NCBI GenBank assembly: GCA_027452205.1
Contig: DAIDGV010000027.1
Span: forward strand, 6,471-70,470
Direction of reading: 5' to 3'
Origin: a candidate division FCPU426 bacterium
Lineage (GTDB): Bacteria; Oederibacteriota; Muellerivitia; Muellerivitales; Muellerivitaceae
Length of the DNA: 64,000 nucleotides
Of this stretch, positions 33,763 through 49,305 are shown piece after piece. How positions within the stretch are numbered: position 1 is the stretch's first letter; every line of letters begins with the position of its first letter. A model generated the notes under the pieces. The model worked only from the letters and a program-made list of their open reading frames with translations, ran no database searches and was not told the DNA's origin. Position numbers and translations under genes: made by a program.

Positions 33763-34974
33763 ATGTTCATCTATAAAGCGGGTGTGGTGGGCGCGGGGGC
33801 CATGGGGTCCGGTATCGCCCAGGTCATTTCTTTCTCGGGGCTTCCGGTGGTCTTGAAAGACACCGATATGGACCGGGTCAATAAGGGTATCGACATGATC
33901 CGCAAGGTCTATCAAAGCCGGGTAGACAAGGGCAAGATGACCGCCTCGGAGATGGACCAGAAGATGAAACTGGTCATCGGGACCACTTCTTATGACGACT
34001 TTAAAGATTGCGACTTAGTGATCGAGGCAGTGTTCGAGAACATGAAGGTAAAACACCAAGTTTTCCAAGAACTGGAAAAGGTATTGCCCGAAACCGCCAT
34101 CATGGCCAGCAACACCTCGGCCCTTTCCATCAGCCAGATCGCTTCGGCGGTGAAACGCTCCGATAAAGTGATCGGTATCCATTTCTTCAATCCGGCGCCG
34201 GTGATGAAGCTCATCGAAGTCATCCCGGGTTTGCAAACCTCGACCGAAACGGTGGATGACGCGGTGACGTTCGCCGAATCGCTCCGCAAAATGCCGGTGC
34301 GCGTTAAGGAATGCGCAGGGTTCTTGGTCAACCGCCTTTTGCTCCCTTATTTGAACGAAGCCGCTTTCGCTTTCCAAGAAGGTTCCGCGCCGATAGAAGA
34401 GATGGACAAGGTCATGCGCGGCTTCGGGATGCCGATGGGACCTTTCGCCTTGCTGGATATGCTGGGCTTGGATGTTTGCGCGGATGTTTCCATGATCCTT
34501 TACGATTCTTTCGGCCCCCGCATGAAAGCTGCTGAGATCCTGGCGGAAATGCAAAAGAACAACCGCCTGGGCGTAAAGAACGGCATCGGCTTCTATGTTT
34601 ATGACGAATCCAAGAAGGCGGACCTGGCCCCGGTGGTCTCGGCTATCCAGGCTAAGACCGGCGTGAAGGGAACGCCCTTCTCGGCGGAACGCTTGGTGTT
34701 CCAGATGATCAATGAAGCGGCCTATTGCCTGGAAGAGAACGTGGCCTCGCCCTCGGATATCGATCTGGCTATGCTGGCTGGGACCGGTTATCCTCAAGAC
34801 AAGGGCGGTCCTTTACATACAGCCGACGGTATCGGTATCGACGTGGTGGTGGCCAGACTCCAAGAGTTCTCGAAGACCTTGGGGCCCCGTTTCTGGCCCG
34901 CACCGATCCTCAAACGCATGGTGGCAGCCAACTATTTGGGTCAAAAGACGAAGAAGGGATTTTTTAATTATTAA
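33763..34974 (+). CDS. 3-hydroxyacyl-CoA dehydrogenase with duplicated C-terminal domain
   Basis: GAGAMG, EAVFE, SNTS, HFFNP, GFLVNR. Confidence 0.93.
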   Translation: MFIYKAGVVGAGAMGSGIAQVISFSGLPVVLKDTDMDRVNKGIDMIRKVYQSRVDKGKMTASEMDQKMKLVIGTTSYDDFKDCDLVIEAVFENMKVKHQVFQELEKVLPETAIMASNTSALSISQIASAVKRSDKVIGIHFFNPAPVMKLIEVIPGLQTSTETVDDAVTFAESLRKMPVRVKECAGFLVNRLLLPYLNEAAFAFQEGSAPIEEMDKVMRGFGMPMGPFALLDMLGLDVCADVSMILYDSFGPRMKAAEILAEMQKNNRLGVKNGIGFYVYDESKKADLAPVVSAIQAKTGVKGTPFSAERLVFQMINEAAYCLEENVASPSDIDLAMLAGTGYPQDKGGPLHTADGIGIDVVVARLQEFSKTLGPRFWPAPILKRMVAANYLGQKTKKGFFNY

Positions 34975-35114
34975 CCTGAGTTACGAAGGACACTAAGGGC
35001 GCCAAGTGCCGCGAAGAAAAAATGGGTAAAGACTGAAATTCCGATTTTTAAATAAGTAGAAGGTTTTACTTTGTGATTTAACTTAGTGGTCTTGGTGCAC
35101 TTTGTGGTTCAAGA
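34975..35114. repeat. gene-less 9-nt-periodic palindrome related to the GxxExxY cassette arms
   Basis: four YRCNAAG units left, four CTTNGTG units right, ending GTGGTTCAAGA. Confidence 0.85.
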
Positions 35115-35130
35115 CTGAAAGGAAAAATGT

Positions 35131-35907
35131 ATGGGTCAATTTTTGAATATTGCGGTGGAAAGCAAGGTCGCGACGGTCACCATCAATAATCCTCCGGTGA
35201 ACGCCCTGTCCCAGGATGTCTTGAAAGAACTGGAAGCCACTATCGATGAATTGGCGGGCAATAAGGACGTCAAGGTCATCGTGCTGACGGGTGTCGGGCC
35301 GGTCTTTATCGCCGGGGCGGACATCAAACAGTTTTCCCAGATCCAGTCCGAGGAGGACGGCAAGAAAGCCGCCGGGTTCGGTCAGCGCATCTTCACGAAG
35401 ATCGAAAAACTCCAAAAGCCGGTCATTGCGGCCATTAACGGGGTCTGCCTAGGCGGCGGCATGGAATTGGCCATGGCCTGTCATATCCGCATTGCCTCGG
35501 ACCGAGCCCGTTTGGGCCAACCTGAAATTAACTTAGGGATCATTCCCGGTTTCGGTGGAACCCAACGGCTGGCCCGCTTGGTCGGGACCGGTAAAGCCAT
35601 TGAGTGGATCCTGACGGGCGACAATATCCCGCCGGCAGACGCTAAGGCTTTGGGGTTGGTCAATCATGTGGTGCCCGAAGCCGAAGTTTTACGCCAAGCC
35701 CAGGGCTTGGCCAAAAAGATTGCCATCAAGCCCGCGGTGGGTATCGCCCAAAGTTTGAAGGCTGTGTTCACGGGCATCGACCAGACCATCGAAAAGGGGC
35801 TGGAAACCGAATTGGATGGTTTCGGCGCTTGCTGCAAATCACCGGACATGAAAGAGGGCGTGAAGGCTTTCGTTGAGAAACGTCAGCCGCAATTTACGGA
35901 CCTGTGA
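35131..35907 (+). CDS. enoyl-CoA hydratase (crotonase)
   Basis: AGADI, GGGMELAM, QPE..LG..PG.GGTQRL. Confidence 0.93.
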   Translation: MGQFLNIAVESKVATVTINNPPVNALSQDVLKELEATIDELAGNKDVKVIVLTGVGPVFIAGADIKQFSQIQSEEDGKKAAGFGQRIFTKIEKLQKPVIAAINGVCLGGGMELAMACHIRIASDRARLGQPEINLGIIPGFGGTQRLARLVGTGKAIEWILTGDNIPPADAKALGLVNHVVPEAEVLRQAQGLAKKIAIKPAVGIAQSLKAVFTGIDQTIEKGLETELDGFGACCKSPDMKEGVKAFVEKRQPQFTDL

Positions 35908-47220: not shown

Positions 47221-47360
47221 TTAACCACAGAGTACACGGAGTACACAGAGTAAGGCGAAAACTGTCTAAATTTTAACGTTATGTTTTGGGTTCGAATGGC
47301 CTAGATATTTGGGTTTAGTCCCGTGAACTCTGTGGCCGCCGAAGGCGGCCTGTGGTGAAA
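47221..47360. repeat. 9-nt-periodic palindrome (CACRGAG variant)
   Basis: CACAGAG-ta-CACGGAG-ta-CACAGAG ... TCCCGTG-aa-CTCTGTG..CTGTGGTGAA. Confidence 0.8.
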
Positions 47361-47384: not shown

Positions 47385-48257
47385 ATGCGTAGCATGACAG
47401 GCTTTGGCCGGGGAACCGGGGAATCCAAGACGGTACAAGTCGTGGCCGAGATCAAGACGGTCAATCACAAGTTCCATGACATTTCCGCCAAAATGCCTTC
47501 TTCCTATCAGTTCCTGGAGCCGGACGTGCGCGAAGTGGTCCTGGGTTCGGTCACCCGGGGCAAGGTGGAGATCTTCATCAAGGACCTGTCGCCGGACCGG
47601 AAAAGGACCATCCGTCTCAACGAAGAACTGATCGACGAATATCTCAAAGTCTCCAAAAAAGCCGCGACCAAGTTCAAGCTCAAGGGTGAGCTTTCCATCG
47701 AGACCCTGCTCAAGATGCCCGATGTGCTGCAAGTGGTCGAGGAAGAACGCCAGGAAGCGGACCAGAAAAAAGCGCTGGTCGCCGCGGTCGAGGAAGCCTT
47801 GAAAGCGCTGGAAAAGATGCGCCAATCCGAAGGCGGGCGCCTGGGCAAGGATATGTTGGAAAAGGCCAAGGAAATTTCGCAAGTGGTCAATCAAGTCCGT
47901 CAACGCCACAAAGTGGTCGTTGCTGAAAAGGTCAGGGCCTTCAAAGAGAAGATCACCGATTTTCTGCCCGAGCCTTTGATCGATCAGGTCCGATTAGCCA
48001 CAGAAGAGACAGTCATCCTGCAACGCCACGATATTGCCGAAGAGTTGACCCGGTTGGACAGCCATTTAGAGGCCCTTCAGGAAACCCTGAAGGATAAGGG
48101 CGCGGTGGGCCGCAAATTGGACTTCCTCATCCAGGAAATGAACCGGGAAGTGAATACGACGGGCTCCAAGTCGGCGGACGCCAAGATGGCCCAAAGCGTG
48201 GTGCGGCTTAAGGAGTTGTTGGAACAACTGCGGGAACAGATCCAAAATATAGAATAA
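47385..48257 (+). CDS. yicC: YicC/YloC family endoribonuclease
   Basis: MRSMTGFG, GRKLDFLIQEMNREVNT.GSK, REQIQNIE. Confidence 0.95.
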   Translation: MRSMTGFGRGTGESKTVQVVAEIKTVNHKFHDISAKMPSSYQFLEPDVREVVLGSVTRGKVEIFIKDLSPDRKRTIRLNEELIDEYLKVSKKAATKFKLKGELSIETLLKMPDVLQVVEEERQEADQKKALVAAVEEALKALEKMRQSEGGRLGKDMLEKAKEISQVVNQVRQRHKVVVAEKVRAFKEKITDFLPEPLIDQVRLATEETVILQRHDIAEELTRLDSHLEALQETLKDKGAVGRKLDFLIQEMNREVNTTGSKSADAKMAQSVVRLKELLEQLREQIQNIE

Positions 48258-48730
48258 TCTTGAATCTCAAAGTTCACGAAGACCACAAAGTGATAAACAC
48301 TAAGAATTTCAAGCCGATACCGGCAGAAATTGAAAAGATTGGAAAATCCGTTTTGGATGCGGCTTTTCGGATTCATTCCTCTTTGGGGCCGGGTTTATTG
48401 GAAAGTGTTTATGAGTCTTGCTTAGTCCATGAATTGTCCAAGTCTGGTATCGTTTGTCAGCGTCAAGTTGGATTGCCTGTTGTTTATGATGATTTGAAAT
48501 TCGAGGAAGGCTTCCGGATTGATGTTCTGGTTGAAAATAAGATCGTTCTTGAACTGAAGTCTGCGGAAGCACTACTGCCGGTCCATCAGGCGCAAATGCT
48601 GACTTATCTTCGTCTTTTTGGGTGTCGGTTGGGCTATTTGATTAATTTTAAAACCGTGTCTTTGAAAAGCGGCATCAAAAGGTTTATTTTGTGAGAACTT
48701 TGTGATCTTAGTGTCCTTGGTGGTTCAAGA
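48258..48730. mobile_element. GxxExxY cassette bounded by periodic inverted arms (TCTTGAA...TTCAAGA)
   Basis: inverted CACNAAG/CTTNGTG arrays enclose an AT-rich gene exactly between yicC stop and gmk start; mobility is inferred. Confidence 0.6.
48260..48694 (+). CDS. GxxExxY protein (PD-(D/E)XK-like)
   Basis: LGPGLLESVY, RIDVLVE..IVLELK, QMLTYL, GYLINF, GIKR; start TTG 48260 or GTG 48290. Confidence 0.92.
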   Translation: MNLKVHEDHKVINTKNFKPIPAEIEKIGKSVLDAAFRIHSSLGPGLLESVYESCLVHELSKSGIVCQRQVGLPVVYDDLKFEEGFRIDVLVENKIVLELKSAEALLPVHQAQMLTYLRLFGCRLGYLINFKTVSLKSGIKRFIL

Positions 48731-49305
48731 TGAATGTTAAAAGAAAAGGGTTGCTGATCGTTCTTTCCTCCCCCTCGGGCGGGGGAAAGACCACCATTGC
48801 GCACCAACTCATGGCCAAGGACAAGAACATTGTCCGGTCCATTTCCTGTACGACCCGCAAGCCCCGTTCGGGTGAGAAAAGTGGCCGAGATTATTTCTTT
48901 GTGACCGTTCCTAAGTTTAAAGCCATGGTAAAAGCGAAGAAGTTCCTGGAGTGGGCCAAAGTGCATCAAAATTTTTACGGCACCCCGGCCCATTGGGTGG
49001 AGGCCCAACTGAAGAAGGGGAAAGATGTCCTCTTCGTCATCGATGTTCAAGGCGGCAAGATCATTAAGCACAAGGCCCCCCATGCCCTTTTGGTTTTCGT
49101 AAAGCCTCCCAGTTTCACGGTCCTGAAACAGCGGCTTTTGGGCCGGAAGAGCGATAGCGCGGAAGCCCTGAAAGTGCGCCTGAGCGACGCCAAGTGGGAA
49201 ATGAAAGAGGGGAAGCATTACGATCATCGGGTGATCAATGACCGTTTATCCCACGCGGTCAAAGAAGTCCGAAAAATCATTCAAAACGAACGAAAAAAAG
49301 CCTGA
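48730..49305 (+). CDS. gmk: guanylate kinase
   Basis: SPSGGGKT, TTRKPR, DYFF, YGT, IDVQG. Confidence 0.96.
   Translation: MNVKRKGLLIVLSSPSGGGKTTIAHQLMAKDKNIVRSISCTTRKPRSGEKSGRDYFFVTVPKFKAMVKAKKFLEWAKVHQNFYGTPAHWVEAQLKKGKDVLFVIDVQGGKIIKHKAPHALLVFVKPPSFTVLKQRLLGRKSDSAEALKVRLSDAKWEMKEGKHYDHRVINDRLSHAVKEVRKIIQNERKKA

Follow-up and report, generated by a model that had tools for sequence, protein, structure and literature searches.

A probable gene-less relic of a word-armed GxxExxY cassette at a bacterial hbd-crotonase operon junction

Small palindromic repeats shape the expression of bacterial operons as well as the plasticity of bacterial genomes and, to our knowledge, only few such systems are understood, namely REP/RAYT, Correia elements and IVS. 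MITEs, which include the Correia elements of Neisseria, are short and non-autonomous, carry terminal inverted repeats, and are co-transcribed as hairpins with their neighbouring genes. The REP/REPIN sequences and their RAYT genes, as portrayed in the available text of two reports (PMC3116915, PMC3479197), are extragenic palindromes that occur dozens of times per genome and often at operon junctions, with a small gene located between inverted repeats. ORF-bearing IVS of 23S rRNA, for example those of Coxiella burnetii, form a stem that, according to the accessible part of the source, serves as substrate of RNase III (PMC4990558).

Here, we describe a family of elements that pairs a gene of the PF13366 nuclease fold with arms of repeated words. 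Our literature search (supplementary files excluded) found no published description of such word-armed GxxExxY cassettes. The analysis starts from a 64-kb stretch of DNA (the window) in a genome of 28 contigs and 2.89 Mb, which is called G000 and whose contigs carry C-numbers. Within the window, a hairpin element separates an hbd-like gene (3-hydroxyacyl-CoA dehydrogenase) from an enoyl-CoA hydratase (crotonase) gene starting at 35131 (Table 1). Its left arm begins directly after the hbd stop codon (TAA, 34972-34974), and 5 nt lie between the end of the right arm and the crotonase Shine-Dalgarno sequence AGGA (35120-35123), which precedes the ATG; the element lies exactly between stop codon and ribosome-binding site. 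The original prediction had read this segment as an empty copy of a cassette that is present with its gene at the yicC-gmk junction of the same window, and its reading of four left CRCNAAG words opposite four right CTTNGTG words agrees with the sequence to the letter. So does the claim that the last 11 nt are shared with the end of the yicC-gmk cassette, given that the window contains exactly two copies of GTGGTTCAAGA, at 35104 and 48720. Five further matches with one mismatch lie in unrelated sequence and were dismissed on inspection as chance.

Table 1. Coordinates of the hbd-crotonase element and of related features in the window.
Feature	Position	Strand	Sequence or basis
Left (5') arm	34975..35016	+	outer flank CCTGAGT and four words (sequence)
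Outer flank of left arm, degenerate	34975-34981	+	CCTGAGT
Left word 1	34982-34988	+	TACGAAG
Left word 2	34991-34997	+	CACTAAG
Left word 3	35000-35006	+	CGCCAAG
Left word 4	35010-35016	+	CGCGAAG
Interior (loop), AT-rich, single copy in genome	35017..35068	+	GC, genome copy search
Proposed vestige, interior end and first right word	35058-35076	+	AGAAGGTTTTACTTTGTGA
Right (3') arm, four perfect CTTNGTG words and terminus GTTCAAGA	35069..35114	+	sequence
Right word 1	35069-35075	+	CTTTGTG
Right word 2	35082-35088	+	CTTAGTG
Right word 3	35091-35097	+	CTTGGTG
Right word 4	35100-35106	+	CTTTGTG
Right terminus	35107-35114	+	GTTCAAGA
Third window element, CACRGAG type, between an upstream gene and yicC	47221..47360	+	word-pattern search
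Gene-bearing cassette, yicC-gmk	48258..48730	+	473 nt; arms, ORF, profile matches
Left arm of yicC-gmk cassette	48258-48304	+	
GxxExxY ORF of yicC-gmk cassette	GTG 48290 to TGA 48694	+	
GxxExxY gene end	48677-48694	+	AAAAGGTTTATTTTGTGA
Right arm of yicC-gmk cassette	48698-48730	+	

The GC content drops to 0.26 in positions 35017-35070, compared to 0.534 window-wide, and the interior has no second copy anywhere in the G000 genome. No ORF lies between the arms, which enclose no PF13366 or TIGR04256 gene, and tblastn detected no protein-level GxxExxY remnant in the interior; the element is therefore filed as a gene-less derivative rather than an intact member. The notion of an empty copy is supported, as word arrays and right terminus equal those of the cassette that still has its gene, and as the genome holds ~35 elements of this kind. 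We consider it probable that these 140 nt represent a relic, single-copy and without a gene, of a word-armed GxxExxY cassette, and that the G.U richness of its stem derives from the skewed composition of the arms.

A palindrome that arose by chance, or an ordinary stem-loop inside the operon without any relation to the cassettes, is barely conceivable as an explanation. It would be compatible with the fold z-score of the element, which is only modest (-2.3). Against this, the double-word pattern has 8 matches in the window where 0.21 are expected, all of them within the hbd-crotonase element and the yicC-gmk cassette, and an arm profile matches the right arm by nhmmer with an E-value of 3.7e-08 (C27:41549-41585). 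Chance was rejected on the grounds of these word counts, the 11-nt terminus identical to that of the cassette, and the arm-profile match. The termini of the family are TCTTGAACCAC ... GTGGTTCAAGA, of which the right one is exact here and the left one, ACCTGAGTTAC, has 5 differences from the terminus common to other copies. The same element is present on a peat-metagenome contig that is ~92% alike and carries single-base insertions behind 35024 and 35044, as well as a 9-nt deletion of 34982-34990. This deletion removes exactly one left-arm word together with its spacer and marks the left arm as the labile one; arm length changes by whole units.

The hbd-crotonase element is one of ~35 hairpin elements in G000, whose arms consist of 7-nt words with a 9-nt period. 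The genome contains 52 arrays with two or more CTTNGTG words and 74 matches to the arm profile; pairing of the arrays yielded 26 short elements of ~90-270 nt, which were folded, plus two gene-bearing cassettes, and at least seven further elements, among them the third element of the window, belong to the CACRGAG word type. Throughout the family, CRCNRAG words in one arm are opposed by CTYNGYG in the other, and the ends read ...AACCAC / GTGGTT.... Of 15 other genomes belonging to the same taxonomic family, 14 contain a triple-word pattern, with between 2 and 92 arm matches per genome, and the reversed pattern, used as control, gave 0 matches in all 26 genomes searched. Judged by these patterns, word-armed, hairpin-bounded insertions are widespread, and the hbd-crotonase copy is one gene-less member. 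Short forms can also multiply as such, with one interior being common to eight copies of one subfamily. On C23 (114890-123271), four copies of one subfamily with a common interior are located inside 8.4 kb; two of these form a tandem with 77 nt in between and share a single intergenic region of 535 nt.

The GxxExxY protein is a roughly 130-aa protein of the PD-(D/E)XK fold (PF13366). The protein encoded in the window matches TIGR04256 (E 8.2e-42) and PF13366 (E 4.4e-41), and the GLLESVY, IDVLV and ELK motifs are intact in its translation by our own reading of the sequence alone; a search of solved structures returned nothing relevant (best E 0.58, a peroxidase). G000 has five GxxExxY paralogues, three of which are armed, each with its own word: CACNAAG (window), CACAGAG (C15) and RCAGGGGAT (C24). 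Of the remaining two, one is without arms and one is truncated. The paralogues at C14:14528-14842 and C24:242587-242949 both lack recognisable word arms, and the latter has an early stop at ~100 codons and looks broken. Gene-less copies of the CACNAAG and CACAGAG word types are present in the genome. The match of three paralogues with three word types suggests that the GxxExxY nuclease probably recognises the words, and the nuclease may also move the cassette. At the yicC-gmk junction, the cassette fills the available space to the base (window 48255-48733): the yicC stop codon TAA runs directly into TCTTGAA..., and the final A of the cassette end ...TTCAAGA is the A of the gmk ATG. Because the cassette end overlaps this start codon, the right-arm GGTGG occupies the expected position of the gmk ribosome-binding site.

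Among described systems, REP/REPIN-RAYT comes close, and the likenesses drawn here refer to the available text of its descriptions. In both cases, dozens of short extragenic palindromes per genome are found, many of them where two genes of an operon meet, the repeat also occurs in inverted copies on either side of a small gene, the repeat type follows the paralogue, and gene-less copies far exceed gene-bearing ones. However, the protein here is a PD-(D/E)XK-fold GxxExxY protein (PF13366) and theirs is a Y1/HUH transposase; the arms consist of 3-4 seven-base words at a 9-nt period instead of a single REP stem; and the gene-bearing unit is multi-copy and decays into the short form. In addition, the sole full match to PF01797 (Y1_Tnp) in G000 (C16:144-503) is accompanied by unrelated hairpins and no word arrays, and the family is thus not REP/RAYT in the strict sense. 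The C16 locus is an IS200-like Y1 transposase gene, and the GC-rich hairpins on its two sides are of the CCCCAGGC...GCCTGGGG type.

Similarly, the family shares with the IVS of 23S rRNA, as far as these are treated in the accessible part of PMC4990558, a small ORF whose complementary flanks pair into a long stem once transcribed (predicted here), a sporadic, horizontally spread and 'selfish' distribution, and an ORF that decays as the stem persists. In contrast to IVS, the element described here lies between protein-coding genes (hbd and enoyl-CoA hydratase) rather than in rRNA helices 25 or 45, the ORF of IVS specifies the S23p four-helix bundle rather than a PD-(D/E)XK protein, and the same text describes no word arrays for IVS. 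MITEs are likewise short derivatives with terminal inverted repeats, the internal deletion of the hbd-crotonase copy and the autonomy of its parent being putative in our case. They differ from the present family by target-site duplication, which is not evident here: a direct repeat beyond a palindromic T...A is absent in 15/15 parsed copies, and the flanks of the hbd-crotonase copy read TTATTAA and CTGAAAG. Nor is a DDE transposase parent known here, the parent carrying only the small nuclease-fold gene. Finally, Ssn (GIY-YIG) with its NTS/SRM sites also combines a small nuclease gene with a short sequence in many genomic copies; in the portion of the source at hand, however, the nuclease belongs to another superfamily, and NTS/SRM are single sites cut as ssDNA, not gene-bracketing word arrays (PMC11893778).

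How might the hbd-crotonase copy have lost its gene? The original prediction had called it an internally deleted derivative, and this part of the proposal stands for the family and is weak for the individual copy. The 270-nt element at C19:46312-46581, which is co-directional with its neighbours, contains N- and C-terminal GxxExxY remnants with an internal deletion and a stop; what is left of the coding sequence spans residues ~23-51 and ~100-147 of the protein (E 4.5e-11 and 0.001 in tblastn). This element is an intermediate caught on the way from full cassette to empty hairpin. It belongs to a series of decreasing length, from the full 473-nt cassette through the C19 copy with both gene ends and many elements of ~90-150 nt to a 45-nt remnant in G001. 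The latter is located at the yicC-gmk junction, where G000 carries the full cassette, the congener G001 retains the left arm and the right-arm tip, and the congener G002 has nothing. Taken at sequence level, these forms indicate that internal deletion is real for the family. For the hbd-crotonase copy, the proposed origin would be an inserted cassette whose nuclease gene was lost by internal deletion; this copy has no protein-level remnant, so deletion in situ is indistinguishable from insertion of an already short element. Its single-copy interior fits decay in situ and, equally, an old insertion of a short form.

A vestige of the gene end had also been proposed, based on the resemblance of AGAAGGTTTTACTTTGTGA to AAAAGGTTTATTTTGTGA. 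Both sequences are present, and the resemblance is weak: when the 14 nt before the innermost right word were anchored and compared with the last 14 nt of the gene, 54 of 5000 shuffles reached the score (p about 0.01), in a comparison chosen post hoc. The unanchored alignment of the interior with the last 60 nt of the gene was not significant, 948 of 1000 shuffles being as good, and unanchored alignments of the interior with the full cassette and three paralogues gave scores reached by 114, 948, 63, 230, 739 and 161 of 1000 shuffles.

Transcription signals were searched for around the element. On the + strand, no terminator-like site with a GC-rich stem and U tract exists between 34700 and 35400, the sequence after the stem being CTGAAAGG, and no promoter-like site was found at the element. 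A tRNA is the sole Rfam match in the window; the best local E-values, to snoRNA models, range from 1.1 to 8.2. The readings as terminator, promoter or member of an Rfam family were rejected, as no site or model at the element corresponds to them. In the absence of a terminator or promoter, the relic is most likely co-transcribed with hbd and crotonase, and in the operon mRNA it would fold into an interrupted stem of ~40 bp. The RNA of the + strand folds with -39.8 kcal/mol (z -2.3; 1/200 shuffles as good) and that of the - strand with -23.9 kcal/mol (z -1.05; 28/200 shuffles as good). The difference of 15.9 kcal/mol confirms that the strand asymmetry predicted for this copy is real. The hbd-crotonase element lies in a tight operon junction without transcription signals, and its + strand can form a long interrupted stem.

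What does this asymmetry mean? One possibility is that the hairpin is under selection in the mRNA of hbd and crotonase, where it could be processed by RNase III or act as a stabiliser between cistrons, with changes being tolerated only where a G.U pair keeps the stem. We regard this explanation as rather unlikely. The better fold of the + strand favours it, and so does the documented excision by RNase III of hairpin-bounded ORF cassettes, the 23S rRNA IVS, as reported in the accessible part of PMC4990558. The wobble pairs themselves point in the same direction at first sight. Pairing the words and the outer flank by hand reproduces the predicted 8 G.T pairs and 2 mismatches, both of the latter being A.C and hence G.T on the other strand, and there is no transversion in words and flank; at fixed positions, this absence arises by construction, as the regular expression for the words allows only transitions there. 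The full arm-to-arm alignment contains 29 Watson-Crick, 10 G.U and 3 A.C pairs and 3 transversions.

We propose that the G.U richness would rather follow from the skewed composition of the arms, with changes confined to the left arm. The 5' arm (CACNAAG, ...AACCAC) is A/C-rich and the 3' arm (CTTNGTG, GTGGTT...) is G/T-rich. Owing to this skew, C to T and A to G changes in the 5' arm create a wobble pair on that strand, and a transition in the 3' arm creates A.C on that strand and a wobble pair on the other. Each of the three deviations from CACNAAG at fixed positions falls in the left arm, as do the flank changes, and the right arm shows no departure from consensus. The + strand is therefore rich in G.U pairs because the left arm took the changes. 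Either selection on the RNA stem or conservation specific to one arm may have brought this about. Among the word variants that the family tolerates, CGC for CAC is the most frequent, and some relatives use it as their standard word. Moreover, the central N is Watson-Crick paired in only 40 of 84 word pairs and not in 44, among which 27 are transversion mismatches; it is free of pairing constraint. The intact cassette, with transversion mismatches at 3/3 N positions, speaks against selection for the stem in mRNA, since it indicates that pairing is not what the words conserve. Accordingly, G.U richness argues only weakly for a hairpin retained because of a function in the mRNA.

One result counts nominally against a composition-only reading of this copy. 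In a neutral simulation starting from a perfect palindrome, the probability of at least 8 G.U pairs on one strand, given 10 changes, was 0.0004 to 0.012 for kappa 2 to 8, values to be read against a start state that the N positions of the family contradict and against a copy picked from ~35 as extreme. Under neutral decay, the wobble excess is nominally unlikely.

If the hairpin were maintained in mRNA, asymmetry should recur across copies, as the original prediction had also held. At the level of words, G.U pairs in co-directional contexts are distributed 6:6 between sense and antisense at fixed positions and 8:9 at N positions, and the arm alignments of nine other elements at the orthologous junction give 25:25; all three counter the mRNA explanation. 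Arm alignments across G000, sorted by gene orientation, contain 64 sense and 55 antisense G.U pairs, a tally inflated by copies of one subfamily and without clear bias. Another group of copies with inherited asymmetry, subfamily A, likewise argues against mRNA selection, as it sits three times in sense and three times in antisense orientation.

Folding energies behaved differently. Among 23 co-directional contexts in G000, the element core folds better in sense in 16, better in antisense in 6 and equally in 1 (p 0.052). In tight junctions, with both gaps at most 90 nt, the ratio is 12 to 2 with 1 tie (n=15, p 0.013), and the controls are flat: 301 intergenic regions free of elements gave 140 v 138, and 250 CDS windows gave 119 v 120. 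This favours some RNA-level or orientation-linked effect. Replication was sought in four relatives (G007, 46 elements parsed from 70 loci; G011, 30 loci; G008 and G013, 15 loci each). Their tight junctions gave 7 v 9 in G007, 3 v 1 in G011, 2 v 0 in G013 and 2 v 1 in G008, which amounts to 14 v 11 when pooled (n=25, mean -2.65 kcal/mol; p 0.69 by sign test and 0.067 by Wilcoxon test), and to 17 v 18 in the matched CDS control. By itself, the replicate set is weak; together with G000, the ratio becomes 26 v 13 (mean -3.6 kcal/mol, Wilcoxon p 0.0019), a figure that includes the discovery set. Subfamily descent and crude ORF-based gene calls add noise to these tests, and some orientation labels may be wrong, the hbd-crotonase site of G007 having been mis-called as divergent. 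A sense-strand folding bias is possible, with replication short of the usual threshold. The predicted asymmetry across copies is thus seen in the folding of G000 elements and neither in the G.U tallies nor clearly in the relatives, and the claim that the hairpin is maintained in the mRNA has not been established by these data.

Alternatively, the asymmetry could reflect a hairpin of single-stranded DNA, as in REP/RAYT, the ends of IS200/IS605 and integron attC, with one strand being the substrate of a nuclease or of replication-linked processes and G.T pairs tolerated there. We judge this to be quite improbable. The third element of the window is of interest in this regard, as its right arm is broken by the mini-hairpin GGCCGCC-GAA-GGCGGCC (47335-47351), and GAA loops of the d(GCGAAGC) type show unusual stability in DNA. 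Within the CACRGAG subfamily, a pattern search of 17 genomes found six copies of the variant (four in G000, one each in G008 and G006), a number too small for a test of orientation; the C-GAA-G loop is kept and the stems show compensatory changes (GCTGCC/GGCAGC, GCCACC/GGTGGC, GCGGC/GCCGC). In one copy, the displayed strand contains a T.G wobble. However, all three mini-hairpin copies with readable context are in sense orientation, which fits an RNA reading equally well. The fixed 9-nt word period and the free N positions point to protein recognition over simple RNA pairing, and a precedent exists in Ssn/NTS, where, in the portion of the source at hand, a small nuclease with genomic repeats acts on ssDNA (PMC11893778). 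On the other hand, the available text of PMC3424549 lists the function of PF13366 as 'Unknown', with a mixed-clade phylogeny.

The hbd-crotonase junction itself gave an unexpected result. It was inspected in 19 genomes and one metagenome contig, i.e. 20 loci with G000 counted; a metagenome search with the hbd protein had kept 80 loci, of which L027 was the sole close relative (88%), the 79 others being too distant. A word-armed hairpin is located at the junction in 12/20 loci (G000, G001, G002, G004, G005, G006, G007, G011, G013, G015, G021 and G023), the one in G013 being decayed, and G010 has a short hairpin of ambiguous origin (1/20). Seven loci are free of any element (G003, G012, G017, G019, G020, G022 and L027), with the stop codon directly against GGAGG. 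The occupants represent at least five word types: CRCNAAG, CACRGAG, CGCCAAG, a CATGGGAT-like 9-mer and a CATCGGTG-like word. Occupation varies inside three genera, and three congeners have an element at the same position with differing words and loops that cannot be aligned. At the G004 locus (C116:1850-2180), two right arms with a TTCATCGGTG-like word type stand in tandem, and part of the locus, including its left side, is masked (N). A second junction, C17:145994, is occupied in four genera (G000, G008, G007 and G004), again with differing words; it carries a solo arm in G005 and is empty in eight genomes including both congeners. Two other junctions are mostly empty in relatives.

With tens of elements per genome among a few thousand junctions, this sharing of junctions is not random. 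On sequence grounds, the new observation is the occupation of one operon junction by at least five word types in 12/20 related loci, and shared occupation would have one of three causes: targeting of stop-codon/Shine-Dalgarno junctions, in-place replacement of cassettes, or selection for the hairpin. The frequent presence of the hairpin between hbd and crotonase supports selection in mRNA, and the seven element-free loci weaken it. We find it doubtful that cassette-derived hairpins at operon junctions are more than debris and have been kept, or recruited time and again, as intercistronic RNA elements.

Our preferred reading of the hbd-crotonase element as a gene-less cassette relic shows that G.U richness in arms of skewed composition is not by itself a sign of selection at the RNA level. 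There is also a weak bias towards better folding of the transcribed strand, and particular operon junctions are filled repeatedly by different word types. If recruitment between cistrons were true, signals for processing or stability between cistrons would arise time and again from a family of selfish nuclease cassettes, and the junction itself would be the target or the selected site.
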